This document shows, piece by piece, positions 10,915-37,443 of a DNA stretch of 64,000 nt. Location of the stretch: positions 72,250 to 136,249 of the forward strand of contig JAGVOT010000128.1 of NCBI GenBank assembly GCA_020052615.1, written 5' to 3'. The DNA comes from Nitrospirota bacterium. GTDB lineage: Bacteria; Nitrospirota; UBA9217. Position numbers and translations under genes: made by a program. The first letter of the stretch is position 1. The number at the start of each line of letters is the position of its first letter. Below the pieces are notes generated by a model. That model saw nothing but the letters and a program-made list of their open reading frames with translations. It was not told the DNA's origin and ran no database searches.

Positions 10915-10917
10915 AAT

Positions 10918-18740: not shown

Positions 18741-18901
18741 GATGGCCTTTCTTCGGCGTGGAGCGAAGACTCCATGCAGTTTTCCTCAGGGAGCTTCAAT
18801 TCGCTTCTCGTGAACATAAAGCCTTCTGTTTCGTCCATGATCAGAATATCACAGGAGGTTGACAGCAGTGTGTCGGCAAACGCATGATTGATCGTCGACC
18901 T

Positions 18902-20735: not shown

Positions 20736-20785
20736 TTTGTCGAAAGAGCAGGCCCGACTGAAATCTCAGTCGGGCCTTATTGATT

Positions 20786-22696: not shown

Positions 22697-22940
22697 TGCC
22701 TCTGCCCCTTCTCAGCACGATCCTGTTCATCGGATTGTGTTCCGGTGCCGTAATAGGCATACCCCAGCTCACCATCATTTTCTCGATCTCATTCCAGATA
22801 TAAAGGATCTTTCTGCCGCCAAAGGGCTGGATGTAATGAACCCCTCTCTTGAACACCCGATCTTTCATCTGCTCCCGGATGTAACGGGGCTCGTATTTGA
22901 TCCTTGTGCTCAGTTCATCTGTTGTAAGATACAGAATCAT
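22689..22940 (-). CDS. Small HTH/excisionase-like DNA-binding protein
   Basis: MILYLTTDELSTRIKYEPRYIREQMKDRVFKRGVHYIQPFGG. The position directly upstream of int is typical of xis-like genes. Confidence 0.5.
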   Translation of the reverse strand: MILYLTTDELSTRIKYEPRYIREQMKDRVFKRGVHYIQPFGGRKILYIWNEIEKMMVSWGMPITAPEHNPMNRIVLRRGRGNG

Positions 22941-22943
22941 GGT

Positions 22944-23429
22944 TTATGCTCCTTTCCCTGTGGCTGCGGCCTTCCGGGACCGGCCGGTTTTCGAGGCCTT
23001 TGCTTCTGCTGCTGCCTTTTCCATCCGCTCATTCAAGAGCGTTACCATTGTCGCAAAACTCTCGCTGTAGGCAATGTTTCCGTCTTCAACAGACACAATC
23101 GCAGTGTTCTTAACCGTCCTGGGAGTCGGTACTTTCTCAAGAAATCTGCCGTCCATCTCGGATAAGATATAAATGGAGCCGATCTGATTGCACAGCGATG
23201 TGAGCGCCTCACGATCCCGCTCTATTTCCAGGTCGCCGAACCATATTTTCTTTGCTTTGGCATCAAAGATATTTGCATTGAAGATCGTTGTGGGTTTTGC
23301 CATGCTTTTGCTCCGATAGATCATCCTTCCATGAAGTCCCAGAAGCGTCACCGCAGCCAGAGAAATATTTGTTATTTTCCCGTCGATCCAGGGGGATTCA
23401 TTCTTCTTCATTGTTTCCTTTTTGTTCAT
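22944..23429 (-). CDS. Hypothetical protein (mobile-element cargo)
   Basis: 161-aa ORF co-oriented with the int operon. Confidence 0.4.
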   Translation of the reverse strand: MNKKETMKKNESPWIDGKITNISLAAVTLLGLHGRMIYRSKSMAKPTTIFNANIFDAKAKKIWFGDLEIERDREALTSLCNQIGSIYILSEMDGRFLEKVPTPRTVKNTAIVSVEDGNIAYSESFATMVTLLNERMEKAAAEAKASKTGRSRKAAATGKGA

Positions 23430-23473
23430 ATAGGGGCCCTCTCTTTCTGTCTGAACAGCTCCTTTGTCTTTGC

Positions 23474-23716
23474 TTATATGCCCTCTTTGACCGCCTGGTA
23501 GGCGTCATCAAGCATCCCCCGTGTGATGATATGGTTCGGCGCGATTGCCAAATCGGCAATTTCCTTGGCATCCCTGGCGTAGATCATATATTCTTCGATA
23601 CCCGTCTTTTTGCTGCACTCCAAAAGCAGCAGCTCCATGAAATCATGAGCCCTTCTGTTGTCAAGACTGTTGAACAACCGTTCCAAATGATCGTTATCTT
23701 CGTTTAATATGTACAT
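23474..23716 (-). CDS. Hypothetical small protein
   Basis: 80-aa ORF with a plausible start at the head of the int-directed operon. Confidence 0.3.
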   Translation of the reverse strand: MYILNEDNDHLERLFNSLDNRRAHDFMELLLLECSKKTGIEEYMIYARDAKEIADLAIAPNHIITRGMLDDAYQAVKEGI

Positions 23717-23884
23717 TACTGCCTCCTTTGATATGGGTTGATTGCCAAACCTCTCAAAATGCGTAACGCCAAGTGGTTCCTTGTGTATCCGGTGAGCCGT
23801 CCGTTCTTACTTGAAGATTGAGACCTCCTTGTTATAATGAGTGCCAATTTGTCATCCTGTATGTAATTTTATCTTTCATAATAT

Positions 23885-23945
23885 CGTTTGTCAAGACAAT
23901 TATACATTCTAAATGTAATTATTTTATACTGATTGACAATTTACT
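23885..23945. promoter_or_regulatory. AT-rich divergent promoter/operator region carrying a palindrome and TTGACA-like boxes.
   Basis: TTGTCAAGACAA palindrome. Second TTGACAATTTAC copy about 40 bp downstream. Lies between divergent genes (23,716 minus; 24,008 plus XRE). Confidence 0.25.
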
Positions 23946-24007
23946 ATGAAATGTGATAAGAAAAGGCAGGTTTATTCAGGAGATGCACGCTGAAGGGAGT
24001 ACAACAA

Positions 24008-24208
24008 ATGATCAAATGCCATCTGTCGAAATTAATGGGAGAGCGGAAACTGAAGATTGCTGATGTAGCCCGCGACTTGGATGTTCATCGAAATACGATC
24101 ACACTCCTCTATCACGAAAAGGCCAAGAGGATAGATTTTGAGGTCCTTGATAAGCTATGCAAATATTTTGATTGTCAGGTGGGTGATATCATAGAGTTCA
24201 AAAAGTAA
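24008..24208 (+). CDS. XRE/Cro-family helix-turn-helix transcriptional regulator
   Basis: LKIADVARDLDVHRNTITLLYHEKAKRIDFEVLDKLCKYFDCQVGDII is a classic Cro/C1 HTH. Confidence 0.7.
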   Translation: MIKCHLSKLMGERKLKIADVARDLDVHRNTITLLYHEKAKRIDFEVLDKLCKYFDCQVGDIIEFKK

Positions 24209-24216
24209 TTCTTACC

Positions 24217-25401
24217 TCATGATGTTCTTGTAAGCGCCGATAACGCAGATTCCACCCAGCCGAAGCCGATTCTTTCTTGCTCAAGACGCAGATTCCTGCG
24301 TATTCGGTTGTCTCGCAAATCATCATAAAGCGCCCTTTCCTCCGGATGCAACATAGCCAAGTCGCGTAGAGTCTGCTTTTCTTCCTCGCCCCATAGCGTT
24401 TCAAATGCAAACAACGTATTGCGGTCCATCAGAAACGACTCTACGTGTTCAAATTGACTGCGAAGTTGATCAAGGATCGCGAAGCCATGGGTATCAATAT
24501 CACCCCAATAAACAATACGGCGGTGGGAAAGCCACTCGGCTTTACTCAACATCTCGAAACCGTAGCCCGCGCCAAAGATAACCATACTGTCTTTGACCTG
24601 CGGAAAGGCTAAGAAGTTGATCTCGTTCTCGGTGATGAAGACACGTGAGACCTTGGGCTCGATACTGGCAAAACTCTCAGCATCAAGGGTAATGTCCTGT
24701 ATAAGAGCGCCCGGCAATAAAGCGCGCTTTGGATCGATTACCCGAAAGCGGATGCGCTCCGGCTTATCACAAAATCCATAACGCTTTGCGAATTGCCTCG
24801 TTCCAGAGGCCGTCGGATCAATTACTGCGGGCGATAGGACGATATCCAGCAACTCTTCGAGCACTGCACGATGGGCTTCGATGAACTTGCTGTGGACACT
24901 TGGGAGGTCTACTTGTCTTAGGTACACGCCAGGGCGTGGATGTTTTTGTAGCCAGCCGACTATTTCTAGCAGCAGACTCCACTCGTTAGAGAGCTCTAAC
25001 GCGCGAATCGGCCGTTTGGCCAACCAGCCCACCACTTGAGGCTGGCGCTTACGTGTTACATCGATCAACGCAGTGAAGCGGGTAACATCTCGTTGTTTGC
25101 TAATGAGTGCCAAGGCATCTTCGACGGTATCGATCCATACCTCATGGGGTACAGCATTTTCACCGAAGACACGGTGCTTGAACTCACGCATCTCGACTCG
25201 GCAGTGAGGCATCGCCCGAAGCTCACTGATCCAGGTGCGCGCCTCTTCGAAGTGATCGGCCATTTCACCCGACGTAGGGCCTTTGAACAGCAAACGCTTC
25301 GGGAATAGCGACTCACCCGTAACAAGACTGGCCAGCAGTTCTCCCCGATCCCATAACTTTTGCACCTGGGCACGAAGGTTAACCGGCCTTGTCCAATTCA
25401 T
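24217..25401 (-). CDS. jetD: Wadjet JetD (DUF3322/DUF2220, Toprim/topoisomerase VI-like)
   Basis: C-terminal VIFGAGYGFEML...IVYWGDIDTHGFAILDQLR matches the JetD/MksG Toprim-like module. Last gene of a four-gene jet operon. Confidence 0.8.
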   Translation of the reverse strand: MNWTRPVNLRAQVQKLWDRGELLASLVTGESLFPKRLLFKGPTSGEMADHFEEARTWISELRAMPHCRVEMREFKHRVFGENAVPHEVWIDTVEDALALISKQRDVTRFTALIDVTRKRQPQVVGWLAKRPIRALELSNEWSLLLEIVGWLQKHPRPGVYLRQVDLPSVHSKFIEAHRAVLEELLDIVLSPAVIDPTASGTRQFAKRYGFCDKPERIRFRVIDPKRALLPGALIQDITLDAESFASIEPKVSRVFITENEINFLAFPQVKDSMVIFGAGYGFEMLSKAEWLSHRRIVYWGDIDTHGFAILDQLRSQFEHVESFLMDRNTLFAFETLWGEEEKQTLRDLAMLHPEERALYDDLRDNRIRRNLRLEQERIGFGWVESALSALTRTS

Positions 25402-28400
25402 CCGACTATCCTCGCTTTTTCCGCGTGGTAATCCTCAATTGAGAGATTACGCAGTTTGGACGCTCGACCTTCCTCATTCTGAACAAACCCAACGCTAGAG
25501 ACGAATGGTTCAATGATGTGAATTTTCTGCAGAGGTGTGACAATCAGGATCTGCAAGTTGAGTTGGGCAAACAGTCGCAAGCCGTACTGTGCGGAGTCAT
25601 CTGATCCTCGCCCAAAGGCTTCATCGATGACCACGAAACGGAAGGATCGGGAACGTACCGCTCCCCATTCAAGACCGAACTGATAGGCCAGGCTAGCCGC
25701 CAAGATGGTATAGGCGAGTTTCTCCTTTTGACCTCCTGACTTGCCACTCGAATCAGAATAGTGCTCGTGTTCGCTATTGTCCTCGCGCCAGCGCTCGCTG
25801 GCGGCGAATACAAACCAGTTCCGCACATCAGTGACCTTGGCTTCCCAACGCCGATCCTGCTCGGATAACCCCTCTCGACCTCGAAAGCGTTCGATAATAT
25901 GCTTAACCTGCAAGAACTTGGCTTCGGAATATTGGGTATCGTCAGAACCGGTCAGTGCCCCTTCGGTACAGGCGCGCAGGTCGGTCTGAAAATCTCGGAT
26001 CTCGGCATCCGGTGTCGGTTGAGCTTCCAGCACGATATAGCGGCCGGCATTGTAGTCGATCTGGGTGAGCGACTTGTTGATATGTGCGATACGTTCCTTG
26101 ATTGTTTCTCTCTCGCGGGCCAACTGCGATTGAAAATTCGCCACCTCGCGGATGGTGTTTTCGTTCAGCAATTCCTTGAATCGAGCTTCAAAACGAGGTA
26201 GATCGTCGTTTTTTAGTTGGTGAAGCATATTCCGGTATTCGACAGCTGCTTCTATGCTGGCATCTACCTCTGCTGTTTCCAGCTTGAATTCTTCTTTGTA
26301 CGACGCCATTGCCTGGATGATCTTATCGCGCATACGTGTGCGCTTCAGGTCTTCGGCATCGATCCTGGACTGTAACAAGTCGCGCATGTCACGCTCGCGG
26401 TTGTCACAGGATTCGACAGTAAGTTGATGCTCGCCCACGGTCTCGCTTCGTATGGCATTAAGACGCTCGAAATGGAATGAGTGGCTCGTTTGCTCGGGTG
26501 TACTGACCAGCGCTAAGGCCTGGTCACGCAAATCTTCGGCAGCTCTGAGCTTGGCTTGAGTAGCCCCCAGTTCTTGGGTTTTTTTCGCAAGCTTTATCTC
26601 AGTATCAGCGAGTTCACCGCGAAGTGCTCTCAGTCGTTCGCTCAATTGCTTGAGCACATCTGAGGCAGACTCGAGCCTTTGCTTCTCGTCTGTAAGCTGA
26701 GCCACCTCCAAGGCAAGGGACTGCCAGTCGATTTCACGAAAATCAACGTACTCATCGAGTTTCGACAACGCCGTAAGGCGTTCGTCGAGCGTTTTTTGGT
26801 CGGATTGAATCTTGCCAATGAGGACGCCCAATTCTCCCAAGCTAGTCTCCAACTTTCTTTCTTTGGCTTCCAGTGCCGCTATTTTCGCCGCGTTAGTCCA
26901 GCCCAGCACATAGCGACCGCGATCATCCAGCCGGTAACGGTCGTCTTTTTCGTGACGCTCGCCGGGAGACTTGATTTGGCCCGCAAGCGTGATGGCGCGG
27001 GTCTCACGACGGAACTGCTCCTGTGTTGTGCAGCATGCCAGGTCGAAACGGTGAGCCACTTCACGTTCGAGCCAGTCGTAGAAAGGAGAGTCAGGCTTGA
27101 TGACTATTTTCCGCGCAAGGGAATCCCGGTGCAGATTAGGCAGATCGCGCTGAGAACCCTGGCGTATCCGAAAATAGACCAAACGTCCCCTTAGATGTGT
27201 TCTGTCGACCCAGTGAGACACCGCTACATAATGTTTATCTGGTACCAGAAGCGACAGACCGAAGCTACGCAATAGCCGTTCAGCGGCCCCCTCCCAGTCG
27301 CGTTCATCGTCACGGACTTGCAGCAGTTCGCCGGAAAAAGGCATATCCTCTTCTGGCAAGCCGAGTGCTTCGCATAACGCAGCGCGCATGGACACCTGCT
27401 CACCGGAAATGTTGCTGCGCCGGACTTTTAGACTGTTTATTTCCGAGGTCAGCTTTTCGTGCTCCTGCTTGCCCTGTCGAAAGTTCACGCCTTGCTCAGT
27501 GAGTTCGTTTTGCAGCTCCGCTTCACGAGTTTTCAACCCATTGCCCAGATCTCTGAAGCGACCATGCAACATAAGGAACTCGGCTTCCGTTTCGGCCGTG
27601 GCTTCGCCGACGGCGCGCACTAGCTTTCCGTATCGCTGCGCTTTCTCCAATCTTTTTTCCCGTTCTGTATCTTTGCTGCGAATGTCGGCTGCTAATCGCT
27701 CAATCCGATCGCCGCCGTTATCAGCGATACTTTGCTTGAGCTCGCCTTCGGTCACTCGCTGCGCGTCACGGAGTTCCTTAGTCCGCTTGACCTGGCTGTC
27801 TTGACGTCTCCATTCTCCATCAAGTCCTGAGATACGTTTTTCTAGCAGGCCGAGTTTCAGGCCTGCGAAGTAGGGTCCCAGCGCCTCGCGACAGGCGCGG
27901 AGTTCCTCCACTTGGGAAAGAAGGGAGTTATAGCGTTCACAATCAGAGACCAACGGTGAGAGCAGTTCCAGTTGACGCTTGGCCTTCAGTACAGCCACGT
28001 GCGCCCGGTTCAAGTCATCAAAATGGGCGATCAAGGCAGAGACGCGTGGCTCAACATCAAAAGGTTCAAGCATATGGCTGCGGACGAAGTCAGTCAGGTT
28101 ACCCACCGACTTCATCGACACCGTTTGGTGAAATAGCTCCAGTGCCTGTTCGTTCTCGATACCGAATCGACGACGAAACCAGGCGCCATAGGTCGGAAAA
28201 CTGTCAACCACCTCTGCGCCCAGACCACGCAATTTCTTCCGCAATCCGGTAATGTCCGGGCCGAAATGCGCGAAGTCCTCCGCAATCGACAATGCTCGCT
28301 CTGCGCCTACAAAGAAGCGGGCAGGCTGCGTCAGGGAGTCTTTCATCCAGAAGACCTGTGCCAGCGTGACCGTTTGTTCGTAGCCCGCGTTATGAAAAAC

Positions 28401-28772
28401 TCCCAGGATAACAGAGTAATTATTGTGGTCGCGAAGCGCTACAGGTTTGGCTGTGCCACTCACCTCATTGCGCTCGGACTTAAAATGCCCGAGCACATAG
28501 GATCGTAGCGTGCGTTCCTTGTTGTCGGCCCCGGCTGCCTTGTTGTAGGCGATGCGGTGCGCCGGCACCAGCAGCGTGGTGACCGCATCCACCAGTGTCG
28601 ATTTGCCCGATCCTATATCGCCGGTGAGCAAGATGTTCTTGCCGCTCGGATTCAGCGCCCACACTCGGCCATCAAAGGTGCCCCAGTTGAATACCTCTAG
28701 ACGATGCAAACGGAAGCCCGAAAGCACATCGCCGTCTGCACCAGCCAGACCCACGGTTTGCGCATCATCCAT
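25398..28772 (-). CDS. jetC: Wadjet JetC (SMC-like ABC ATPase)
   Basis: N-terminal Walker A (LLTGDIGSGKSTLVDA). Long coiled-coil middle. C-terminal signature/D-loop (GKSGGQKEKLAYTILAASLAYQF...FRFVVIDEAFGRGSD). Start placed at MDDAQTV to avoid overlapping jetB. Confidence 0.85.
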   Translation of the reverse strand: MDDAQTVGLAGADGDVLSGFRLHRLEVFNWGTFDGRVWALNPSGKNILLTGDIGSGKSTLVDAVTTLLVPAHRIAYNKAAGADNKERTLRSYVLGHFKSERNEVSGTAKPVALRDHNNYSVILGVFHNAGYEQTVTLAQVFWMKDSLTQPARFFVGAERALSIAEDFAHFGPDITGLRKKLRGLGAEVVDSFPTYGAWFRRRFGIENEQALELFHQTVSMKSVGNLTDFVRSHMLEPFDVEPRVSALIAHFDDLNRAHVAVLKAKRQLELLSPLVSDCERYNSLLSQVEELRACREALGPYFAGLKLGLLEKRISGLDGEWRRQDSQVKRTKELRDAQRVTEGELKQSIADNGGDRIERLAADIRSKDTEREKRLEKAQRYGKLVRAVGEATAETEAEFLMLHGRFRDLGNGLKTREAELQNELTEQGVNFRQGKQEHEKLTSEINSLKVRRSNISGEQVSMRAALCEALGLPEEDMPFSGELLQVRDDERDWEGAAERLLRSFGLSLLVPDKHYVAVSHWVDRTHLRGRLVYFRIRQGSQRDLPNLHRDSLARKIVIKPDSPFYDWLEREVAHRFDLACCTTQEQFRRETRAITLAGQIKSPGERHEKDDRYRLDDRGRYVLGWTNAAKIAALEAKERKLETSLGELGVLIGKIQSDQKTLDERLTALSKLDEYVDFREIDWQSLALEVAQLTDEKQRLESASDVLKQLSERLRALRGELADTEIKLAKKTQELGATQAKLRAAEDLRDQALALVSTPEQTSHSFHFERLNAIRSETVGEHQLTVESCDNRERDMRDLLQSRIDAEDLKRTRMRDKIIQAMASYKEEFKLETAEVDASIEAAVEYRNMLHQLKNDDLPRFEARFKELLNENTIREVANFQSQLARERETIKERIAHINKSLTQIDYNAGRYIVLEAQPTPDAEIRDFQTDLRACTEGALTGSDDTQYSEAKFLQVKHIIERFRGREGLSEQDRRWEAKVTDVRNWFVFAASERWREDNSEHEHYSDSSGKSGGQKEKLAYTILAASLAYQFGLEWGAVRSRSFRFVVIDEAFGRGSDDSAQYGLRLFAQLNLQILIVTPLQKIHIIEPFVSSVGFVQNEEGRASKLRNLSIEDYHAEKARIVG

Positions 28773-29406
28773 TGACGGCCCTTCCAGAGGTCGCAGCAAG
28801 CTGTGTCTGGTAGGCTGCCAATCGCGCATCGAAATCGGCCAGCCATTGTGCGTCCACAAAAGCCCTGAGAATTCGCCGCACCTCGAACATTTCTGCCTGC
28901 CCTATGCTCGGTTTAAGCCTGCGCAGGAATCCTAATTCAACTATCTTATTCAGATAGGTTTCAATCTGGTCGATTAACTTGGCTTCATTGCTGCTTTCGG
29001 GAAGGAACACCCGGATCAATTCAACGATGTCTTCACGGGAAAGCACAAGGCGCGTGTCGCCACCACTCGCGTCGAACTCTGCAAGCTTCTTGCGCAGCAG
29101 CGCCAGCAGCAGGCTCACCGGAAACGACAACGGACGCCGAGCCACCAAGCGCGGATGTTTTGAAGCCGCGTCTTCTTCACTTTCCTGGCGCGATTGCAAG
29201 AAGGCATAGCCCTCTGCCTCGTCAAACACCAGCTCCAGGCCCAGTACAGCCACATAGTCACGCACACGAGCTTGCAGGTTGAGCAAGGCGGTCCAAAGGC
29301 CGGCGTCAGCTTCTTGATAGATCACACCTTTGAGCAAGAAGATAAGCAGGGCCGACAAATCATTCGTTACCGCGGTGTTTACAGGTTTTTCTTCCGTCAT
29401 CTTCAC
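28765..29406 (-). CDS. jetB: Wadjet JetB (DUF4194)
   Basis: Size, position between jetA and jetC, and acidic/helical composition match JetB/MksE-like proteins. Confidence 0.65.
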   Translation of the reverse strand: MKMTEEKPVNTAVTNDLSALLIFLLKGVIYQEADAGLWTALLNLQARVRDYVAVLGLELVFDEAEGYAFLQSRQESEEDAASKHPRLVARRPLSFPVSLLLALLRKKLAEFDASGGDTRLVLSREDIVELIRVFLPESSNEAKLIDQIETYLNKIVELGFLRRLKPSIGQAEMFEVRRILRAFVDAQWLADFDARLAAYQTQLAATSGRAVNG

Positions 29407-30857
29407 CTCACAAAGATCACGCGCGGCAGACGTGCCTGCTTCGCATATTCCTGGCCAAGCGGACCTTCACAGTCCCAGACGACTGTTTCTGTCACGTTTT
29501 CATCCACCACGCTCTCGAAGACGCCACTGGCAAGCTGTAAATACGCCACCAGCTCTGCAAGGCCATGCTGCAGCGGCTGTATCTCGCACAGCTCACGCAA
29601 CGTAATTTGGGGACGATCCTGCAGGGCTTTCCGGATATGCCTGGCCAGTTGGTCTTTATCTATCACCACTTGAGTGTACAGTGCTACCGCATCCACTTCG
29701 GCGTCGCCTGACTCCAGATCGATATCGACAATCAAAGGTTTGATGGCAGGGGTATAGAGTGGCCTTTCCATCGGCAATTCGATGTCGGCAGCGATGTCTG
29801 CAATGTTCATCACCTCGCCCGGGGGCGGTGACTCTCGCAGTGCCAGTGACTTGGCCTCGATACCGTGCAGGATATCCATTATGCGGCGGTTCTCCAGCCA
29901 AGCCTGATCATCCAGAAAGCGCCGTAACTGCTGCGAAAGCTGGGCTACCATGCGCTGCGTATGCTCGCCAGCCTCAAGCCAATCGTAATGCAATCGGCGG
30001 GTGCGTGCGTCGGGCTTGAGCTCGGCGACCGCAGGCAGGGTCAAGACTCGATCAAGCAGCGCCGACAATTCGTCCTGCCGGCTGCTGGACATCAGGAAGT
30101 CCCAAAATGCGCGAAAACTACGTCCCTGATCCGAATCTGCAATCGCATCGCGTTCGCCCATGATTTCTTGCAGCAGCGTTCCTTTTGAACCCTCCCACAG
30201 CGCGATGCGTTCCCGCACGTGCCGATCCAGCCTAAGAAAGTTGTGTTCCACCTCTCGAAAATCGGTGAGCAGTTCACGCGCTAGCTGAATAAACTGTTGA
30301 AAGCGGTCCTTCAATGCTGTGTCGTCCAATAACGGAATGTCACCTGACAAAACGCGGGCAATTTCAGCATCAATCGCATCGCGTCGCTTATGCAATTCCA
30401 CAATACGAACTCGCGGATCAGTTTCGGTGCCTGCGTTCATCTGTTTGAGCAGTTCGAACAGTGTTAGCAAGCGCGACTCTGTACCCACGAAACTGCGCTC
30501 GGTGAGCGTTTCCAACCACGCAATCGCCTTCTCGGTCGCCGGGGTCAAATCGAAATGCGGCTCGTCCGAATCCTGCACGTAGAACTTTCGCAGCCAACCC
30601 TTCTCAGTCCCTGCCCAGTCGTTGAGGTAATCAAGCGGTGACTTCGGGAATGCGTCTGCGCCCAACCGTTCGCGCATGGCAAACAGTTCATCCTCAAGAG
30701 CCTCGGCCAAGTCCGCCTGAGATATCACTCGCACATTGTGTTCGATGAACACGCGCTGCAGAAAACTCGCCACCAGCGGCGCATGATCCGAGCGTAAAAG
30801 CCGCCAAGCAGGGTGGCTCTGCCGCAATTGATCGAGGGTTGTATAGTCGAGGGTCAT
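29403..30857 (-). CDS. jetA: Wadjet JetA (DUF3375, kleisin-like)
   Basis: 484-aa first gene of the operon. Overlaps jetB by 4 nt. Composition and size match JetA/MksF. Confidence 0.65.
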   Translation of the reverse strand: MTLDYTTLDQLRQSHPAWRLLRSDHAPLVASFLQRVFIEHNVRVISQADLAEALEDELFAMRERLGADAFPKSPLDYLNDWAGTEKGWLRKFYVQDSDEPHFDLTPATEKAIAWLETLTERSFVGTESRLLTLFELLKQMNAGTETDPRVRIVELHKRRDAIDAEIARVLSGDIPLLDDTALKDRFQQFIQLARELLTDFREVEHNFLRLDRHVRERIALWEGSKGTLLQEIMGERDAIADSDQGRSFRAFWDFLMSSSRQDELSALLDRVLTLPAVAELKPDARTRRLHYDWLEAGEHTQRMVAQLSQQLRRFLDDQAWLENRRIMDILHGIEAKSLALRESPPPGEVMNIADIAADIELPMERPLYTPAIKPLIVDIDLESGDAEVDAVALYTQVVIDKDQLARHIRKALQDRPQITLRELCEIQPLQHGLAELVAYLQLASGVFESVVDENVTETVVWDCEGPLGQEYAKQARLPRVIFVR

Positions 30858-30927
30858 GCGCTGGATGTCTTCAGCATATAATGATTCGATTAAATTTCAT
30901 GGTCGCTTAGCGTCCGGGGTCGGCGCG

Positions 30928-31125
30928 TCATACCTTTACGCTCCTGAGTTCTTCTGCGGTATGATTGCGGGATTGTTCGGTCGTTTTCCAGAGGAAGGCT
31001 TCTAGGAATTCCCCGGCTTCGATGGAGAGGGCTTCGGCGAGGTTCTTGGAGTCGTGGAATTGCGCCCAGTCGCGTTCGTTACGGAATGAGATGATTTTTT
31101 TCTGGATGGAGTCTAAATCAGCCAT
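30928..31125 (-). pseudogene. MazG-like nucleotide pyrophosphohydrolase, C-terminally truncated.
   Basis: FRNERDWAQFHDSKNLAEALSIEAGEFLEAFLWK matches the MazG/HisE-like core and the first E-x-x-E motif. The ORF stops where the second EE..D helix should begin. It lies directly upstream of jetA. Confidence 0.5.
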
Positions 31126-31215
31126 GCCCCTCCCCGACTGCTATTAATCCCATGATAATTTTGAACATTACTACAGGTGCGGGGAAAAGTCCAGAGGAGA
31201 GAAGAACCATTAAGA

Positions 31216-32556
31216 TCATTCGATATAGACGCCAAACTGTGTCCTGTGACTTAAACCAAGATGGGTATGCACCTCGATAATCATATAATGCAAACCGCGA
31301 TATGCCGTTTCTTCCCAATGTGAGATATTGTCATGTTCTTTAATCGTAGTTACCGTTTTTTCAGTAACATGACTCCCGAACATTTCGCCGCCTTTAGTGC
31401 GTGCATCGACACCGTGATTTTCAACTTTGAATTTTATTGTGTAAGGCAGCATCGGCATATAGGGTAGCTTCATACTGAACTTGATACTTTTCCCTTTCGG
31501 CAAAAACCGGCTTGTTGAAGAATAGGTGCCTTCAAACTGGCCGCCCCGTTCATTAAAAATATCAGCCGAAATCCGAATACCGTCGGCGTTCTTTTGGTAT
31601 GTCGGATCGAACTGCGCGAGTGGTGAGTGTTTCAAATAAGAGTTCCAGTTGAGTTCATATTGCTTGTAATTTATCGGGTTGCCTCGTGCATCGGTATGGT
31701 TCGGTTGTAGATACGGGATGGGTACTTTATTGCCATTCGATGTAATTGACTTCACAGAAAGCAATTCATCGGGGAAGTCGATAAAGCTTCGTATCGATTC
31801 ACCAATCATGATCTGATTACGACCAGCCGCATGCTGCAATTTAGAGGCAACATCGACGAAGAAAGAAGTAGCAGTGACTTCCTCCATACCAGGATAGCCA
31901 TAAGAACGCCAAAGGACATCTGCTTCTTTGCCAAAATCGACGCCAACGCGAATTCCAAAAGGCTCCTTATATCCCATTGAATTCAATTTAGGGACAACGC
32001 TCTGCTCAACAAAATAACAGAGAACAGACGCGCAGTTCAGGCCGTCGATAATTCCGGTCTCCGGTGCAACTGTGCTTCCGCCGAAATATGCCATTACAGC
32101 GTCCCCCATGATTCTGTGGACATGACCGTTAAATGACTTGACAATCTCCATCGCAACGCGGATGAATGCATTCTTGATCCGATATACATCTTCCAGCGGA
32201 TATAGCAGGCTGAGGCGCGTAGAGCTCTCAATATCCATGAACAAAGTTGTAATTGGACATTTAATCATCAGGTCGGTCCCGAGAAGGTGCTTGAAATCGG
32301 GATGGTCACCAATGTCCGGACGCTGCGGCTCACCTTTTTGATAGAGGGGTCGAAGTATCCTCTGTATTGAATATTGGGGCACCAGTTCACGCGATGTAGA
32401 TTCTGAAAAAGATACCGCAGAATCCATCGATTTCGATGCCATCAATTGAGTGGCATTCTGCCTGCTCGCATCTTCAAGGTAGCACGAAAATGTATTCTGA
32501 AAACTATCCCTTACTCCCATACCGCCACATCTCCCTTCAGATAAGAGCCCAGACAA
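31216..32556 (-). CDS. Class-III nucleotidyl cyclase-domain protein with a ~150-aa uncharacterised C-terminal domain (PycC-like).
   Basis: TTLFMDIESSTRLS matches F-x-D-I-x-G-x-T. HRIMGDAVMAYFG matches K-x-I-G-D-A-x-M-A-x-F-G. GIRVGVDFGKEADVLW matches R-I-G-I-H-x-G. NQIMIGESI matches the (V/I)-x-V-S-E region. Confidence 0.7.
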   Translation of the reverse strand: MSGLLSEGRCGGMGVRDSFQNTFSCYLEDASRQNATQLMASKSMDSAVSFSESTSRELVPQYSIQRILRPLYQKGEPQRPDIGDHPDFKHLLGTDLMIKCPITTLFMDIESSTRLSLLYPLEDVYRIKNAFIRVAMEIVKSFNGHVHRIMGDAVMAYFGGSTVAPETGIIDGLNCASVLCYFVEQSVVPKLNSMGYKEPFGIRVGVDFGKEADVLWRSYGYPGMEEVTATSFFVDVASKLQHAAGRNQIMIGESIRSFIDFPDELLSVKSITSNGNKVPIPYLQPNHTDARGNPINYKQYELNWNSYLKHSPLAQFDPTYQKNADGIRISADIFNERGGQFEGTYSSTSRFLPKGKSIKFSMKLPYMPMLPYTIKFKVENHGVDARTKGGEMFGSHVTEKTVTTIKEHDNISHWEETAYRGLHYMIIEVHTHLGLSHRTQFGVYIE

Positions 32557-33073
32557 CCGAAATAATCTTAACCAAAATCATCAAACCCAGAGCCGGAAGC
32601 TGAACGAATAGAATGGCACCTATCGCTATCTTCATTTTCCGAAATTTATCATTGAGCCCTTTGGCCAGAGCATGAGCTTGCATGCAGCAATCCTTTAATA
32701 GCTCTTCATCAGTGGTTTCCTTGACACATTGATGGTAATCTTCTGGATTTTCGAATTCAGCGATATGACCAAAAAATATCTTTGAATGGTATTTCGCCGG
32801 ATTCTTCGGAGATTTCAAGAAAGGATTAATGACTTGAAACACTGCTGCTAATGAGACAAGTGATGATATTGCAGCCATGAGAAGCAGCAAACTTACGAGT
32901 ATCGCCGCGACTGCCTGAGACCCGAACGTCTGAAGCAAATCACCCCATTTGAGGACAATGGCACTAAAGATAAAAGTATCAAAGGCTACGATCACCGTCG
33001 CCTTCGTATTTGTAGTATTAATATAATGATCGAAACGGTTAATCACTTTCCAGAGAAAATCAGCAGAAGACAT
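32537..33073 (-). CDS. Small multi-pass membrane protein (two N-terminal TM helices, helical linker, C-terminal TM helix). Candidate pore-forming effector.
   Basis: Hydrophobic helices VIVAFDTFIFSAIVL, AVAAILVSLLLLMAAISSLVSLAAVF and IAIGAILFVQLPALGLMILVKIISVVWALI. Overlaps the cyclase gene start by 20 nt. Confidence 0.55.
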   Translation of the reverse strand: MSSADFLWKVINRFDHYINTTNTKATVIVAFDTFIFSAIVLKWGDLLQTFGSQAVAAILVSLLLLMAAISSLVSLAAVFQVINPFLKSPKNPAKYHSKIFFGHIAEFENPEDYHQCVKETTDEELLKDCCMQAHALAKGLNDKFRKMKIAIGAILFVQLPALGLMILVKIISVVWALI

Positions 33074-33159
33074 ATCGGGTTCCCCTTTACGTTGTGGGTA
33101 TCACGCGTACTAAAACAAAACCGGCCGAGGCTATTAAAGATCAACCTCGCCCTTACCAG

Positions 33160-33333
33160 TTATTTTTCCTTCCGCACACCCTTGAAAGGATCTTTGTCTT
33201 GCTTCTGATCGATGAAGCGCCCGGTCTCCGTGTCACGCTTTACCCAGCGATCGTTGTGTGGATTATGGGTCTGCGAACGATCAATGACTTGCCCATGCCT
33301 GTGACCATCCCCACTCGGTGGATTCTTCGCCAT
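33160..33333 (-). CDS. Small hydrophilic protein (hypothetical)
   Basis: MAKNPPSGDGHRHGQ... ORF preceded by a strong GGAGGTG RBS. Lies immediately downstream of the LRAT-like gene. Confidence 0.35.
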   Translation of the reverse strand: MAKNPPSGDGHRHGQVIDRSQTHNPHNDRWVKRDTETGRFIDQKQDKDPFKGVRKEK

Positions 33334-33358
33334 GGTCTTCACCTCCTTTCTCAATGAA

Positions 33359-33772
33359 CTATGCCCCTTCGCCCGACATTGCGAGAAAGATAATCACTGC
33401 GAGCATTCCCGCAAAAAGCCCCATGGCTTGCAGCTGGGTGCTTTCCCGTCGACCGGTCGCAACATACCGCGCAAAGTGTTCGCAGTTGTTGCCGAACAGA
33501 TCATAAGCACTGTTTTCAACCGCCTTGTTGATTCTCGATATGGCATCGGGTTCATCGGTTATCCTGCCCAACTCTTTCCAGTCACCGGTATCCTCCAGGT
33601 GATCAAGACGGATTTGTGGAGGTGTCTGGTGAATAACAACTGGCCGCCGACCGTTCGGCAAATTCAACCGGTTACCGACATCAAGGATGCCGTAGTGATC
33701 AACCAAGACCCCTTTCATTTGGGTCTTCTGGATCAAGAGATAGAGTCCGGGTCTTCGAATATGGTGTGGCAT
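33359..33772 (-). CDS. LRAT/NlpC-P60 superfamily (papain-like) protein with a C-terminal membrane anchor.
   Basis: VDHYGIL (His motif) and YDLFGNNCEHFARY (NCEHF Cys motif), characteristic of the LRAT family. C-terminal hydrophobic GLFAGMLAVIIFLAM. Start uncertain (33,772 or 33,718). Confidence 0.5.
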   Translation of the reverse strand: MPHHIRRPGLYLLIQKTQMKGVLVDHYGILDVGNRLNLPNGRRPVVIHQTPPQIRLDHLEDTGDWKELGRITDEPDAISRINKAVENSAYDLFGNNCEHFARYVATGRRESTQLQAMGLFAGMLAVIIFLAMSGEGA

Positions 33773-33895
33773 GGATCCTCCTGCAGCCGATTCGCAATGT
33801 TTGGAATCTGTCGGCGTTCGCCTCTCTGCCAACGGTCTTCCAGTACTATCAGCCGGTATAATACAGAATGCCAGGCTCAAAACGTGAGCCCGGTA

Positions 33896-34891
33896 TTATT
33901 TCCCTTCGTTAGATTTTTCTCCCCCGCCTGGATACAAAGCTACGGCCGCGCTCAGCTGATCCGCAACCTCTTTCCGGAGAGAATCAGGTGATACAACTTC
34001 GACACCCGGTCCATGCTTCAAAATATCCATGACCAGCTCAAGCGAATTCGAATAGGGAATTGTAAGCACATAGCAGCCGTCTTTGAAGCACCCCTCCTGC
34101 TGCGGATGCCATTTTTCCTCGGACACCCAGCGTGCCCGTTCCGGCGTGAACCGGAGGACGGCTTTCTTCGTTGGTTTGCCGCCAAATATGCCGTATGAGG
34201 TGGCATAGTGAGCATCTAGCTCTTTGTCGGTAATTTCCTCGGCAGGAATGTCCAGCTCAGACGCTTTTCTGATCCGGTCGACTGAAAAGCTTCTAAGTAC
34301 CGTTTTCTTGTGATCCCATACGTCAAGGTACCAATTGTCCCTGTAATGGACGAGACGTTGAGGCGAGATCGTGCGCGCTGCCACCTCGTCCCGGGATCGG
34401 CTGTGATAAATGACCTCCATGCGTTTGCGCCGAAGCAGAGAACCCGCCACGCTTTGAAAATGCTCAGGATCCATGCGGCGGGCGGCCATGCCTAGGATAC
34501 GAATGCGTCGGGTGATCTCGCCCCCACCCATATGCTGAGACTGGAGAATCTGTTCGATACGGCTTCGCAAAGGAGTTAGATGGCCTTCAAGCAAGCCCGG
34601 CTGTACCTCGGTTAGCAATCGCTGAACGGTGAGCAATGCATACAGTTCCGATGCGTTGAACCATAGGCCGGGCAGTTCAAAAGGATGCTCGCCCGTCTTC
34701 GCATAATAGTACCCGGATTTTTCACGATCAAACTCGATAGGGGCGCAGAAGTAATTCCGCATATCACGGATGATTCGGTTGACCGTCGCGCGCGAGCACT
34801 CCAGCCGTTCTTGAAGGTTGTCACGTGAGACAGGATATCGAGCATTACTCAAAATCCGGTGCATGCTATAAATTCGATCGAATAGATCCAT
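33896..34891 (-). CDS. WYL-domain transcriptional regulator (HTH-WYL-WCX)
   Basis: AGGAGG RBS before MDLFDRIYSMHRIL. N-terminal HTH. Central ...LVHYRDNWYLDVWDH...RSFSVDRI WYL motif. C-terminal ...VLTIPYSNSLELVMDILKHGPGVEVVSPDSLR. Confidence 0.75.
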   Translation of the reverse strand: MDLFDRIYSMHRILSNARYPVSRDNLQERLECSRATVNRIIRDMRNYFCAPIEFDREKSGYYYAKTGEHPFELPGLWFNASELYALLTVQRLLTEVQPGLLEGHLTPLRSRIEQILQSQHMGGGEITRRIRILGMAARRMDPEHFQSVAGSLLRRKRMEVIYHSRSRDEVAARTISPQRLVHYRDNWYLDVWDHKKTVLRSFSVDRIRKASELDIPAEEITDKELDAHYATSYGIFGGKPTKKAVLRFTPERARWVSEEKWHPQQEGCFKDGCYVLTIPYSNSLELVMDILKHGPGVEVVSPDSLRKEVADQLSAAVALYPGGGEKSNEGK

Positions 34892-35204
34892 ATCTCCTCC
34901 TGGCCTTAGGAGTTTGTCCCCAATAAACGACAAAAGGCGACCTTAGAGATACAGGCCGCCAGCGAATATTTAATTGAATACCGGAAATTCAGCGTTTTTC
35001 TTCTACTAAGTCAGTTACGAGTATACATACAACATATTGTGGTGTCAATATATTTTTAACTACATTTAGCGATAGTCATGAGTTCAATTGACGGAACGTG
35101 TCTGAAAAAGAGATGGGTGGCGGATGGTGACTTCCCTCTTGATTTAGTATATTTTGTGTGCTATATTTCTCACCACAAGGGCTATTTAACGCCTTGGATA
35201 TACC

Positions 35205-36020
35205 ATGAAGACAGTCTCCGGAATAGGAAAAGAATCCCGCGTCCGCCTGGCTCAGATCATGCGCGAGACAAAGGGCACCATCACGGTGTTGCAGGCCGCA
35301 AAGATTCTGCGCCTCCCCGCTCCCACCGCATCGAAGCTCCTCTCCCGCTGGACAAATCAAGGCTGGCTTTCACGCGTTCGTCAGGGGCTATATGTCCCCG
35401 TCCCGCTTGAAGCGCGCACTCCCGACATTGCCCTTGAAGATCCCTGGATCATCGCTGAACAGCTCTATTCGCCCTGCTACATCGGCGGATGGTCCGCTGC
35501 CGAATACTGGGGATTGACCGAACAGCTCTTCCGCACCATCGTTGTGATGACGACGCGAAAGCCGCGCGATCGCAAACCCGCGATCAAGGACACGAACTTC
35601 CTCGTCAGAACAGTCCCCGCGAAAGCATTGTTCGGGACGAAACCGATATGGCGCGGCCAGGTCAAGGTGAACGTCTCCGACCAGACGCGAACGGTCCTGG
35701 ACATGCTGAACGATCCGGCTCTTGGCGGCGGGATTCGTCCGACCGTGGATGTGTTCAAGAGCTATTTGAAGTCAGAGCAAAAGGACACGACCCTACTCAT
35801 CTCCTATGCCGACCGCCTCGGGAACGGCGCAATATTCAAGCGCCTCGGCTTTCTTGCCGAGCGGTTCGCAAAGGACGAGAAGAACCTGATCGAGGCCTGC
35901 CGGTCCCGTCTGAGCGCGGGAAACGCGAAGCTCGACACTTCCCTTCCGGCCGACAGGCTGATTACAACGTGGAAGCTGTGGGTGCCTGCGGCATGGGCGA
36001 GGGAGAAGACCGGTGATTGA
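35205..36020 (+). CDS. abiEi: AbiEi-family type IV antitoxin / transcriptional regulator
   Basis: N-terminal HTH (...ITVLQAAKILRLPAPTASKLLSRWTNQGWLSRVRQGLY). Overlaps the AbiEii gene by 8 nt. Confidence 0.7.
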   Translation: MKTVSGIGKESRVRLAQIMRETKGTITVLQAAKILRLPAPTASKLLSRWTNQGWLSRVRQGLYVPVPLEARTPDIALEDPWIIAEQLYSPCYIGGWSAAEYWGLTEQLFRTIVVMTTRKPRDRKPAIKDTNFLVRTVPAKALFGTKPIWRGQVKVNVSDQTRTVLDMLNDPALGGGIRPTVDVFKSYLKSEQKDTTLLISYADRLGNGAIFKRLGFLAERFAKDEKNLIEACRSRLSAGNAKLDTSLPADRLITTWKLWVPAAWAREKTGD

Positions 36021-37443
36021 CAGACAGGAGATCATGGACTTTGCGAAGGAGTTCGGGCTTGCGCCGAATGTGGTTGAGAAAGACTACGTGCTCGGCTGGC
36101 TCCTGGCCGGGATAGCAAGTCATGCGGACCTCGGTCCCTCGTGGGTGTTCAAGGGCGGCACATGCATCAAAAAATGCTTCTTTGAAACATACCGCTTTTC
36201 CGAAGACCTCGATTTCACCCTCACCGCTGCGGCGCACCTTGATCAGGATTTTCTGAAACGATCCTTTACCGGCGTGACCCAGTGGGTCTACGAGAATTCG
36301 GGTATCGAGATCCCCGCGGACACGATCCGGTTCGAGGTCTATACCAACCCGCGCGGCAAGGTTTCTGCGCAGGGAAAGATCGGATACCGGGGACCACTGC
36401 AGCCGCGCGGCGATCTGCCGAGGATCAAGCTGGACCTGACAAATGACGAAGTGCTCGTGTTGCCGCCTGTCTCGCGTGAAGTCCACCACCCCTACTCGGA
36501 CGATCCGGAAGACGGCATCGCTGTCCAGTGCTACAGCTTCGAGGAAATCTTCGCTGAAAAGCTCCGCGCCCTGGCTGAACGCGAACGGCCGCGCGACCTC
36601 TATGATGTGATCCATCTCTTCCGGCACGAGGAGCTGAAGGCGAACCGAGAACAGATCATGAAGACGCTTGAACAGAAATGCGCCTTCAAGGGTATCGCTG
36701 TCCCGACCATGCAGTCGCTCGAGAACAGGCCGGAGCGCGATGAGCTTGTATCGGAATGGGATAATATGCTCGGCCACCAGCTGCCGATGCTGCCGGCCTT
36801 CGAGCAGTTCTGGAATGAGCTTCCTGCAGTCTTTGCCTGGCTGCACGGCGAAACGCCGCAGGCGGCTGTTGCTGCATCTATGCCTGTTGGGGCGGATGTC
36901 GATACCGCGTGGCAACCGCCGTCCATGGGCCATGCATGGCACGCACCGGTGCCTCTGGAAATCGTCCGGTTCGCAGCTGCAAACCATCTTTGCGTTGTGC
37001 TGGGGTATCAGGGGACGCAACGCTTAATCGAGCCCTATTCCCTGAGAATGACTAAGGACGGGAACCTGATTCTTGCTGCGGTCAAACACGATACCGGAGA
37101 AACCAGGTCCTACCGGGTCGACCGAATCGAGAGCGCGGAAGCCTCCACGGTTTCGTTCACGCCGCGTTATGTGATCGAGCTTACCCCTGCCGCGCCGATC
37201 CTCGCGCCGCCGACCAGGCGCACTGCGCATGTTGCGCGGACACCGAATGCGCGCAGTCCCTTTGCTTCACCGCGCAGAACAGGGAAAATAAAAACGAGCT
37301 GGGGTCCGACGTATGTTATTCAGTGTCCCATGTGCCAGAAGAAGTTCAACCGCAGCTCATACGACACTGCTCTGAACCCGCACAAGAATCAGATGGGTTA
37401 TCCATGCTCGGGCAGGACCGGTTATATCGTGGAAACGAAATAG
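36013..37443 (+). CDS. abiEii: AbiEii/AbiGii-family nucleotidyltransferase toxin (DUF1814) with a C-terminal WYL domain and Zn-ribbon.
   Basis: ...VFKGGTCIKKCFFETYRFSEDLDF plus downstream acidic motifs match AbiEii. C-terminal LCVVLGYQGTQRLIEPYSLRMTKDGNLILAAVKHDTGETRSYRVDRIES is WYL-like. Terminal C-P-M-C...C-S-G cysteine cluster. Confidence 0.8.
   Translation: MIDRQEIMDFAKEFGLAPNVVEKDYVLGWLLAGIASHADLGPSWVFKGGTCIKKCFFETYRFSEDLDFTLTAAAHLDQDFLKRSFTGVTQWVYENSGIEIPADTIRFEVYTNPRGKVSAQGKIGYRGPLQPRGDLPRIKLDLTNDEVLVLPPVSREVHHPYSDDPEDGIAVQCYSFEEIFAEKLRALAERERPRDLYDVIHLFRHEELKANREQIMKTLEQKCAFKGIAVPTMQSLENRPERDELVSEWDNMLGHQLPMLPAFEQFWNELPAVFAWLHGETPQAAVAASMPVGADVDTAWQPPSMGHAWHAPVPLEIVRFAAANHLCVVLGYQGTQRLIEPYSLRMTKDGNLILAAVKHDTGETRSYRVDRIESAEASTVSFTPRYVIELTPAAPILAPPTRRTAHVARTPNARSPFASPRRTGKIKTSWGPTYVIQCPMCQKKFNRSSYDTALNPHKNQMGYPCSGRTGYIVETK

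Follow-up and report, generated by a model that had tools for sequence, protein, structure and literature searches.

Two adjacent genes lie on the reverse strand of the window, by which we mean the whole 64-kb stretch of DNA that was analysed. The upstream one is a 178-aa ORF at 32537..33073 (-) and encodes a membrane protein; the downstream one ends at 31216 (-) and encodes a nucleotide cyclase. We name them pycTM and pycC, and list them here with their parts and their upstream neighbours.

31216..32520 (-): pycC, a 434-aa Pycsar cyclase; the coordinates include the stop codon (31216..31218)
31219..31593 (-): AGS-C domain of PycC (aa ~310-434), folded as an Ig-like beta-sandwich and presumed to serve in sensing or regulation
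31606..32319 (-): class III-type nucleotide cyclase core of PycC, aa ~68-305 (8jsf alignment; Pfam Guanylate_cyc)
32101..32103 (-): metal-binding D140, in HRIMGDAVMAYFGG (434-aa numbering)
32233..32235 (-): metal-binding D96, in FMDIES (434-aa numbering)
32320..32520 (-): N-terminal extension of PycC, aa 1-67; AF2 model with helix 3-30, low-confidence linker 22-47, and helix 53-59
32521..32536 (-): intergenic spacer of 16 nt with the pycC ribosome-binding site GGGAG (32535..32531), read from the sequence and also present in the Nitrospirota relative
32537..33073 (-): pycTM, a 178-aa Pycsar membrane effector of the 3TM pJV1-spdB3 / DUF5706 family
33111..33152 (-): hairpin and then a U-rich run, in the gap that separates the 57-aa ORF from pycTM, seen in the fold of 33074..33165 (-)
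33160..33333 (-): 57-aa ORF, a neighbour whose membership in the system is uncertain; ATG at 33333 after AGGAGG
33359..33772 (-): 137-aa LRAT/NlpC-like gene, likewise a neighbour of uncertain membership; NCEHF motif and C-terminal hydrophobic tail

The cyclase had initially been described as a 446-aa protein whose start overlapped the stop of the effector gene. This version is the longest ORF, and the overlap appeared because the furthest TTG, at 32556, was taken as the start. An in-frame ATG at 32520, located 10 nt past GGGAG, gives a protein of 434 aa and leaves a spacer of 16 nt after the pycTM stop. The database protein P0001, 100% identical to the window cyclase, is called at 434 aa, and the ATG and the spacer are identical in position in a Nitrospirota locus that is 85% identical to ours. 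Hence, both the overlap and the longer protein are artefacts of the choice of start codon.

The cyclase and its membrane partner

PycC matched the PADLOC PycC model PDLC00764 with an E-value of 4.4e-129, along nearly the whole profile (ORF residues 16-446; profile positions 9-449 of 449). The more general Pfam Guanylate_cyc profile scored 20.2 bits, slightly under its cut-off of 21.9. The class III cyclase motifs expected from the initial reading of the sequence were found: FMDIES and HRIMGDAVMAYFGG hold the two metal-binding aspartates, D96 and D140, which are invariant in all 120 aligned cyclase homologues. The same reading had noted an extra beta-rich domain at the C-terminus and taken it to be of unknown function. 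Such a domain exists (~120 aa, all-beta in the AF2 model), but it is a known one. It matches AGS-C (PF18134) with an E-value of 3.1e-13 and 50.3 bits, against a Pfam cut-off of 26.7, and the solved chain 9ard_A, a 'cytidylate cyclase', at 3.6e-6 in a PDB sequence search.

The AGS-C domain is shared with the CD-NTase-AGS-C fusions of type I CBASS, where it has been proposed to tune phage sensing. However, the catalytic domain of PycC is a class III cyclase and not a CD-NTase, and its predicted product is a mononucleotide whereas CBASS makes oligonucleotides. Membership in CBASS was considered and rejected, since the PADLOC models of CBASS cyclases match only the AGS-C region (residues ~314-433) and the core is of class III.

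The product of pycTM exceeds the cut-off of the Pfam PycTM family PF18967 (39.1 bits vs 27.2) and matches the PADLOC models of the 2TM effector (E 3.5e-40) and of PycTM (E 8.4e-32). For both proteins, the PADLOC similarity is far greater than chance would produce. NCBIfam models gave no match for PycC or PycTM. That the 178-aa protein has three membrane helices and a helical cytoplasmic segment, as first proposed, is borne out by the analysis of hydropathy and by the structural model: a Kyte-Doolittle scan placed hydrophobic helices at ~23-44, ~53-82, and ~147-178, and in the all-helical AF2 model (pLDDT 89.5) the cytoplasmic segment lies between TM2 and TM3. There is also a conserved N-terminal cytoplasmic helix, with invariant residues R13, D15, N22, and K24, and no recognisable CNBD.

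The locus combines a PycC carrying both metal-binding aspartates, an adjacent PycTM, and a conservation of the two genes as a unit among defence genes (see below). The view that it is a Pycsar-type cassette, in which a class III-like cyclase is coupled to a membrane effector, was thus supported by profiles and linkage. The Pycsar-2 subclade has been defined by an N-terminal bihelical domain, an AGS-C domain, and the exclusive use of a 3TM effector, never of CNBD-TIR (preprint 10.64898/2026.08.12.744502). Besides AGS-C, our cyclase has two modelled helices ahead of the core (3-30 and 53-59), and in the AF2 model this extension corresponds to the 'N-terminal bihelical domain' of that definition. 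The top-scoring HMM, the nearest solved structure, and the arrangement of domains all point to this subclade. We conclude that the cassette is very probably a canonical two-gene Pycsar anti-phage system of the AGS-C-bearing clade E, or 'Pycsar-2', from which we infer its anti-phage activity, product, and trigger.

As a discovery the pycTM-pycC cassette matters little: defence-finder models already detect both genes, and its domain architecture, effector class, and gene order have all been described for the subclade. It is a divergent example of Pycsar-2 from an uncultured lineage, useful for comparing the determinants of AGS-C sensing and of nucleotide specificity, the latter because the base-pocket position holds both Met and Gln (see below).

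Predicted mechanism and nucleotide product

In the mechanism that we propose, PycC would act as a head-to-tail dimeric cyclase of class III type, using D96 and D140; the residues are assigned from sequence and fold, and the dimer from its likeness to EaPycC. Phage infection would switch the enzyme on, probably through the C-terminal Ig-like AGS-C domain. PycC would then turn a pyrimidine NTP into a 3',5'-cyclic mononucleotide, the likeliest reaction being CTP to cCMP given its clade membership and the conservation of two of the three CTP-specifying residues. This signal would bind the cytoplasmic face of the 3TM PycTM, and the effector would oligomerise or open in the inner membrane. The ensuing loss of membrane integrity would arrest or kill the infected cell before phage release (abortive infection). 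The effector steps are modelled on published Pycsar work and on a relative, PucTM, whose structure is a hexameric pore.

The best solved match to PycC is EaPycC of Elizabethkingia anophelis (PDB 8JSF), a biochemically proven cytidylate cyclase (PMC11224242), which was found at 6e-32 by sequence and at 5.6e-21, with a TM score of 0.81, by fold. Its chain has 342 aa and the match is limited to query residues 68-305, leaving the AGS-C domain unaligned; the region after the core (to ~query residue 305), which is C-terminal beta structure in EaPycC, aligns at the level of sequence. In EaPycC, residues F100, R142, and Q144 specify CTP, and Q144 is required for cCMP (PMC11224242). The 8jsf alignment places F94, R136, and M138 of the window protein at these positions. 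Hence, the two enzymes share the metal-binding aspartates, F100 (F94), and R142 (R136), but differ where EaPycC has Q144. Of 121 cyclase homologues, at least 118 retain F94 and R136, and the M138 column holds Met in 110 and Gln in 9 of the 121. The cyclase of the Pycsar annotated by RefSeq in E. coli also has Met at this place (HRIMGD).

Judged by clade membership, cCMP is the most likely product of the window PycC. Given Met at the position equivalent to Q144, the product could yet be cUMP or something else. It is thus conceivable, if rather unlikely in our view, that the system and its mechanism are as proposed above while the second messenger is cUMP, or a purine cyclic mononucleotide as in Pucsar (cGMP). 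The replacement of the CTP-specifying Gln by Met speaks for such a change, as do the modelling of ligands by AF3, which scored Pycsar-2 cyclases higher with UTP than with GTP, and the diversification of nucleotide use among the relatives of Pycsar (both in preprint 10.64898/2026.08.12.744502). Against it, cCMP is what the nearest relative with a solved structure and known activity makes, the synthesis of cCMP has been ascribed to clade E only (PMC11224242), and EcPycC of E. coli, which bears AGS-C, is treated in the literature as using CTP. The conservation of F94 and R136 argues in the same direction, and the Pucsar cyclases are described as sister to the standalone Pycsar-1 enzymes and not as fusions with AGS-C (preprint 10.64898/2026.08.12.744502).

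The Pucsar systems (PucC-PucTM/PucTIR; 10.64898/2026.08.12.744502) follow the same logic as the cassette, a cyclic mononucleotide cyclase with a 3TM pJV1-spdB3 effector, and the hexameric PucTM pore offers a structural model of how such effectors might act. Their cyclases, which have a guanine-compatible pocket, form a separate subclade and make cGMP, whereas the window protein has the architecture of Pycsar-2; EcPucTM is described as bearing an extra cytosolic appendage with beta structure, which has no counterpart in the all-helical model of our effector. We also considered whether the cassette belongs to Pucsar; its AGS-C fusion and its nearest characterised relative, a cytidylate cyclase, both judged from sequence, argue against this.

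Integrity, linkage, and genomic context

The cassette is flanked by a Wadjet system (JetABCD) and a WYL regulator and is part of a defence island that also has AbiEi/AbiEii, GajA/GajB (Gabija), and an integrase. Its GC content is 0.45, compared with ~0.55 in the flanks. The closest relative is the 85%-identical locus mentioned above, from a Nitrospirota MAG, which keeps the pair amid different neighbours, namely a type IIG restriction-modification gene and an integrase. The cassette moves horizontally. A megablast search of E. coli genomes and plasmids with the cassette returned no match, so that it does not correspond to any known element of enterobacteria or plasmids. A search of the 64-kb window with clade-specific HMMs revealed no second copy of pycC or pycTM; hence, the 'first cyclase cassette' to which the original prediction referred is not a paralogue of this one.

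One may ask if the cassette is what remains of a Pycsar system that has decayed or fallen silent and no longer functions. A truncated MazG-like ORF directly downstream attests to local gene decay, the cyclase of one relative (L033) is frameshifted, and a scan for consensus promoters and terminators on the coding strand near the cassette gave nothing convincing, with no sigma-70-like promoter upstream of pycTM. However, both ORFs are full length relative to the profiles, and the catalytic and family-invariant residues are all intact. The alignment with the 85%-identical relative has no indels in the coding regions of pycTM and pycC, and the differences seem to fall mostly at third codon positions (the alignment was inspected and the changes were not counted). 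A non-functional remnant is therefore very unlikely.

A PycTM ORF is found directly upstream of the cyclase, on the same strand, in 42 of the 45 informative loci, which span many phyla. The other three (L005, L009, and L024) have a PycTM-family ORF nearby in a different orientation; the count covers PycTM-family ORFs. Co-occurrence of the pair across genomes had been named beforehand as the test of the prediction, and the linkage is there. Housekeeping genes were not seen next to the pair in related genomes, where the neighbours are defence genes. It is hence hardly credible that PycC is an ordinary adenylate or guanylate cyclase of the cell's physiology lying by chance next to a membrane protein: the databases do name members of its cluster 'class 3 adenylate cyclase' (or 'hypothetical protein') and the sequence weakly resembles CyaC and CyaB, but the PycC models are its best matches by far, it is fused to AGS-C, its link to PycTM is conserved across phyla, and genes of defence islands or mobile elements surround both the window locus and its relatives.

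The original prediction saw in the cassette a Pycsar-like cyclase served by a non-canonical, SLATT-like pore-forming effector in an operon of inverted order. A small membrane protein of three helices that lacks a recognisable CNBD does, taken alone, superficially resemble SLATT proteins. Yet PycTM is defined in the literature as exactly this, a 3TM protein of the pJV1-spdB3 family lacking a CNBD. The effector passes the Pfam cut-off for PycTM, and a Pfam scan at E <= 0.1 returned this family alone and no SLATT family. PF18967 is carried by 38 of 38 effector homologues, and the E. coli homologue is a Pycsar effector by its RefSeq name. The order of effector then cyclase, seen in the 42 loci and in the E. 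coli Pycsar annotated by RefSeq, is the norm for the clade. A Foldseek search of the PDB with the effector model gave non-specific matches to long helices (e.g., BAR domains), all with E > 0.1, in a copy of the PDB that contains no solved structure of the PycTM family. We thus see next to no room for a SLATT-like, non-canonical effector. The cassette corrects the earlier assumptions in this respect: the PycTM of the AGS-C clade has three helices, lacks a CNBD, and is encoded upstream of the cyclase.

To compare the cassette with an annotated system, we used the homologous pair WP_001549564.1 / WP_001549563.1 of E. coli ECONIH5, in which RefSeq annotates a 'Pycsar system effector family protein' plus a cyclase, as a probable representative of the EcPycC-EcPycTM type. 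Both loci encode a 3TM PycTM of ~176-178 aa, followed by a spacer of 10-16 nt and a cyclase of ~434-446 aa. In each, the cyclase starts with a helical extension, continues with a class III core that contains HVHRIMGDAVMA, and ends in AGS-C, and both pairs adjoin integrases or other defence genes. The proteins are 38% (cyclase) and 27% (effector) identical, with no difference in architecture or order. The hosts differ, in that ours is an uncultured bacterium.

Genes upstream of the cassette

Two small genes precede the cassette on the same strand. The 57-aa ORF belongs to a very widespread, highly conserved, and unannotated family (662 homologous clusters), whose members adjoin CBASS, Pycsar, and other defence genes. 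The LRAT-like protein scores 28.8 bits with Pfam LRAT, for a cut-off of 24.3, and its homologues precede a Pycsar (L001) and a patatin CBASS (L057 and L058). DNA homology with the Nitrospirota relative begins at the ATG of the LRAT-like gene and spans the 57-aa ORF. We considered the 57-aa gene as a third gene specific to Pycsar and rejected this, since its neighbours elsewhere include many unrelated genes of defence and regulation.

The hairpin and U-rich run between the 57-aa ORF and pycTM recur at the matching place in the Nitrospirota locus, despite the different sequence, with weak z-scores of -1.3 and -1.4. The scan for consensus terminators did not call the element at 33111..33152. It may be a terminator, in which case pycTM-pycC might form a transcription unit of its own.

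The cassette thus drew our attention to widespread genes, the 57-aa and LRAT-like ones, that recur beside CBASS and Pycsar operons. One could speculate that they form a module, as yet undescribed, that assists or regulates operons of cyclic-nucleotide defence, or else that the substitution of Met for Gln means that most enzymes of the AGS-C subclade make a signal other than cCMP; that either of these holds seems improbable to us. The LRAT-like and 57-aa genes are co-inherited as a pair with the Pycsar cassette, and a patatin CBASS operon has the same pair immediately upstream. The 57-aa gene also occurs alone, ahead of a Cap5 CBASS operon and next to HTH/M78 regulators.

Gene calls and linkage of the cassette

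Two open reading frames lie on the same strand where the original prediction had placed them, and encode a membrane effector (pycTM) and a cyclase (pycC).

32537..33073 (-), pycTM, 178 aa
31216..32520 (-), pycC, 434 aa

The predicted cyclase length of 446 aa and the predicted overlap of the genes both require the furthest start, a TTG at 32556 (hereafter the long ORF); the overlap is thus an artefact of the start codon. At the junction, the sequence is ...ATC TGA AGGGAG ATGTGGCGGT ATG GGA GTA..., with an in-frame ATG at 32520 located 10 nt after a GGGAG ribosome-binding site. Hence, pycC encodes 434 aa and is separated from the stop codon of pycTM by a 16-nt spacer. Three further observations back this start. 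A protein of the public collections that is 100% identical to pycC was called at 434 aa. The homologue in a Nitrospirota MAG (85% identical) has the same start methionine, with 16 nt between PycTM (9448-9984) and the cyclase (10001-11305). Finally, the alignment to the PADLOC PycC profile begins at residue 16 of the long ORF.

A scan with one genome per species gave 48 loci coding for pycC relatives, in Planctomycetota, Nitrospirota, Cyanobacteria, Bacteroidota, Myxococcota, Pseudomonadota, and other phyla. We searched them with HMMs built from homologues, and 45 had sufficient upstream sequence to be informative. A PycTM-family ORF is immediately upstream of the cyclase, on the same strand, in 42 of these 45 loci; in the exceptions (L005, L009, and L024) the effector is close by in a different orientation. 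The RefSeq genome of E. coli ECONIH5 has the same arrangement: a "Pycsar system effector family protein" of 176 aa is followed, after 10 nt, by a 446-aa "adenylate/guanylate cyclase domain-containing protein", and integrases adjoin the pair (identity to ours 27% for the effector and 38% for the cyclase). Given these loci and the annotated E. coli pair, effector-then-cyclase, which had been regarded as inverted, is the standard order in the clade, and the two genes form one conserved unit. A housekeeping context or an unlinked transmembrane gene had been named beforehand as arguments against the prediction; we found the pair linked and its neighbours, which vary between loci, to be defence or mobility genes. 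In the Nitrospirota relative, these are a type IIG restriction-modification gene and an integrase.

A Pycsar cyclase and its effector

The cassette is a Pycsar system, as predicted from the sequence, given its matches to the PycC and PycTM models and its conserved linkage, and nothing in its effector, extra domain, or gene order is unusual. PADLOC assigns the whole length of the cyclase to its PycC model PDLC00764 (E 4.4e-129), and three more PycC models match at <1e-50. The Pfam Guanylate_cyc score (20.2 bits) is slightly below the cut-off (21.9). The expected motifs are present, FMDIES with D96 and HRIMGDAVMAYFGG with D140 (numbered on the 434-aa protein), and both aspartates are invariant in the 120 aligned homologues (120/120). 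The C-terminal domain, previously thought to be of unknown function, has a name: it is AGS_C (PF18134), which scores 50.3 bits (curated cut-off 26.7) in the long ORF at residues 322-446. The solved structure closest in sequence is 8JSF, a "cytidylate cyclase" (E 6e-32), followed by class III adenylate cyclases (E ~1e-6), and the C-terminal domain aligns with a separate chain, 9ARD, likewise titled "cytidylate cyclase" (E 3.6e-6). In the AlphaFold2 model (pLDDT 87.1), the cyclase core is alpha/beta, with helices before it at the N terminus and an all-beta domain at the C terminus. Foldseek also ranked 8JSF first (E 5.6e-21, target TM 0.81), above the uridylate-cyclase structures 6YII and 7R65.

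The anatomy proposed for the effector was borne out by three hydrophobic segments (about 23-44, 53-82, and 147-178) and by an all-helical AlphaFold2 model (pLDDT 89.5; helices 3-41, 54-82, and 122-177). Its description as a non-canonical, SLATT-like effector was not: the Pfam family PycTM (PF18967, "Pycsar effector protein") matches with 39.1 bits (cut-off 27.2) and is the sole family found in a Pfam scan at E <= 0.1, where SLATT was not found. PADLOC gave matches to the "2TM" effector model (3.5e-40) and to PycTM (8.4e-32). In a search of 5.8 billion proteins, all 38 homologues of pycTM carry PF18967 (38/38). The protein is thus the canonical effector of its clade, with R13, D15, N22, K24, Q132, and K143 as invariant residues.

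In Pycsar systems, according to later literature, the cyclase makes cCMP or cUMP upon infection. A 2026 preprint (10.64898/2026.08.12.744502) splits Pycsar-related cyclases into subclades, and the architecture of its Pycsar-2, an N-terminal bihelical domain with an AGS-C cyclase and a 3TM effector, is that of our cassette. Work on CBASS has likewise remarked on the fusion of AGS-C to PycC enzymes and suggested that the domain tunes phage specificity. For EaPycC, the cytidylate cyclase of 8JSF, a crystallographic study found that cCMP is made by clade E cyclases only, with D102 and D146 as metal ligands and a requirement for F100, R142, and Q144 in cCMP synthesis (PMC11224242). In an HMMER alignment these residues correspond to D96, D140, F94, R136, and M138 of pycC. 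Both catalytic aspartates are shared, as are two specificity residues out of three; the third is Met instead of Gln. Of 121 relatives, 110 have Met in this column and 9 have Gln. EcPycC was modelled with CTP as substrate (10.64898/2026.08.12.744502). The annotated E. coli Pycsar cyclase likewise has HRIMGD. The EcPycC of Tal et al. (2021) reportedly has an AGS-C domain and makes cCMP. Considering the link to clade E, the residues kept, the CTP model, and the product reported for EcPycC, we infer that pycC probably makes cCMP.

The data show a cassette of two components whose catalytic residues are intact and whose linkage is conserved. By homology, PycC would dimerise, be switched on upon infection via AGS-C, and produce a cyclic pyrimidine. 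This signal would bind PycTM at its conserved cytoplasmic face, which carries the invariant residues, and PycTM could then oligomerise into a membrane-disrupting assembly, like the hexameric PucTM pore, leading to arrest or death of the infected cell.

Genes upstream of the cassette

Two small genes precede pycTM.

33359..33772 (-), LRAT/NlpC-like gene, 137 aa, NCEHF motif, C-terminal hydrophobic tail
33160..33333 (-), 57-aa ORF MAKNPPSGDGHRHGQVIDRSQTHNPHNDRWVKRDTETGRFIDQKQDKDPFKGVRKEK, immediately upstream of pycTM

The DNA homology to the Nitrospirota locus (~85% identity) begins exactly at the ATG of the LRAT-like gene, spans the 57-aa ORF, pycTM, and pycC, and stops ~80 nt beyond the cyclase stop codon.

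The family of the 57-aa protein comprises at least 662 clusters and has no model in Pfam or NCBIfam; the best 120 of the members listed share 73-91% identity with this protein. Its relatives were found in L001 (9112-9363), L006 (1155-1334), L021 (4360-4641), L033 (7213-7437), and L051-L066. They adjoin Pycsar-2 cassettes in three more genomes. In L051-L056 they are immediately upstream of a Cap5(SAVED-HNH)-CD-NTase-E1/E2 CBASS operon, next to an HTH gene of divergent orientation and a gene that Pfam does not annotate. In L057 and L058 they are immediately upstream of a patatin-CD-NTase-E2 CBASS operon, with an LRAT-like gene in front. Others adjoin HTH/Peptidase_M78 genes, SIR2, a KAP NTPase, or an integrase. 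This variety of contexts rules out that the gene is Pycsar-specific; it repeatedly occurs 5' of nucleotide-signalling defence operons.

LRAT-like relatives are in L001 (8751-9167), L057 (3557-3973), and L058 (1790-2206). The Nitrospirota MAG has the LRAT-like and 57-aa pair ahead of Pycsar, and another metagenome contig has it ahead of patatin-CD-NTase-E2 CBASS; further upstream, both loci have a HATPase_c gene and a ~194-aa gene (with a faint DUF4325 match in L057 only). Possible readings of the LRAT-like gene are an accessory module, a small system in its own right, and the flank of a hotspot. Between the 57-aa ORF and pycTM, a hairpin with a U-rich run (33111..33152, -), found at the same position with a different stem sequence in the Nitrospirota locus, may be a terminator or attenuator; its folding z-scores are weak (about -1.3 to -1.4).

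Defence island and other cyclase-like reading frames

The GC content is 0.45 over the cassette and ~0.55 on both flanks. A dense defence island, with the Pycsar cassette inside it, covers 9787..37443.

9787-10914 and 10918-12606, Gabija GajB and GajA
12826-18740, AddAB-like helicase-nuclease pair
18902-20104, HD-domain protein
20786-21460, Cas4-like nuclease
21485-22696, tyrosine integrase
24217-30857, type I Wadjet JetD/C/B/A
33896-34933, HTH-WYL-WCX regulator
35205-37443, AbiEi/AbiEii (WYL match in the AbiEii ORF, residues 317-376)

A second, short cyclase-like ORF adjoins the AGS-C cyclase cassette in L003 (7280-8113, -), L009 (7289-8616, -), L018 (1899-2654, +), and L047 (4519-5274, +). 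The one in L009 has a PycTM of its own, and the order in L018 and L047 is short cyclase, PycTM, long cyclase. These double cyclases are consistent with the multi-cyclase loci of the Pucsar preprint (10.64898/2026.08.12.744502). The window holds no such second copy. The region 4240..5354 (-), which is probably the "first cyclase cassette" of the original prediction, is low in GC (0.39-0.43) and holds a 245-aa ORF (FIALFDILGYRDW ... SYADTFLIY) and, after it, a 100-aa ORF that has a single hydrophobic helix. The 245-aa ORF has no match in Pfam, PADLOC, or NCBIfam, the 100-aa ORF has sub-threshold permease-like matches only, and neither is matched by our clade-specific PycC and PycTM HMMs. Any cyclase assignment there is therefore putative.

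The gap from the Pycsar cassette to jetA holds a 65-aa ORF (30928..31125, -) that weakly matches the N-terminal part of the MazG-like family and looks like a truncated remnant; a full-length homologue is present in L016 (1170-1541). Two more orphan proteins, encoded where the island is low in GC, may be defence genes: a 349-aa protein (8572..9621, -) with a C-terminal TIR_2 domain behind a 260-aa N-terminal region without annotation, and a 538-aa protein (5673..7289, -) with an N-terminal SEC-C zinc motif overlapped by weak matches to PADLOC E2 models.
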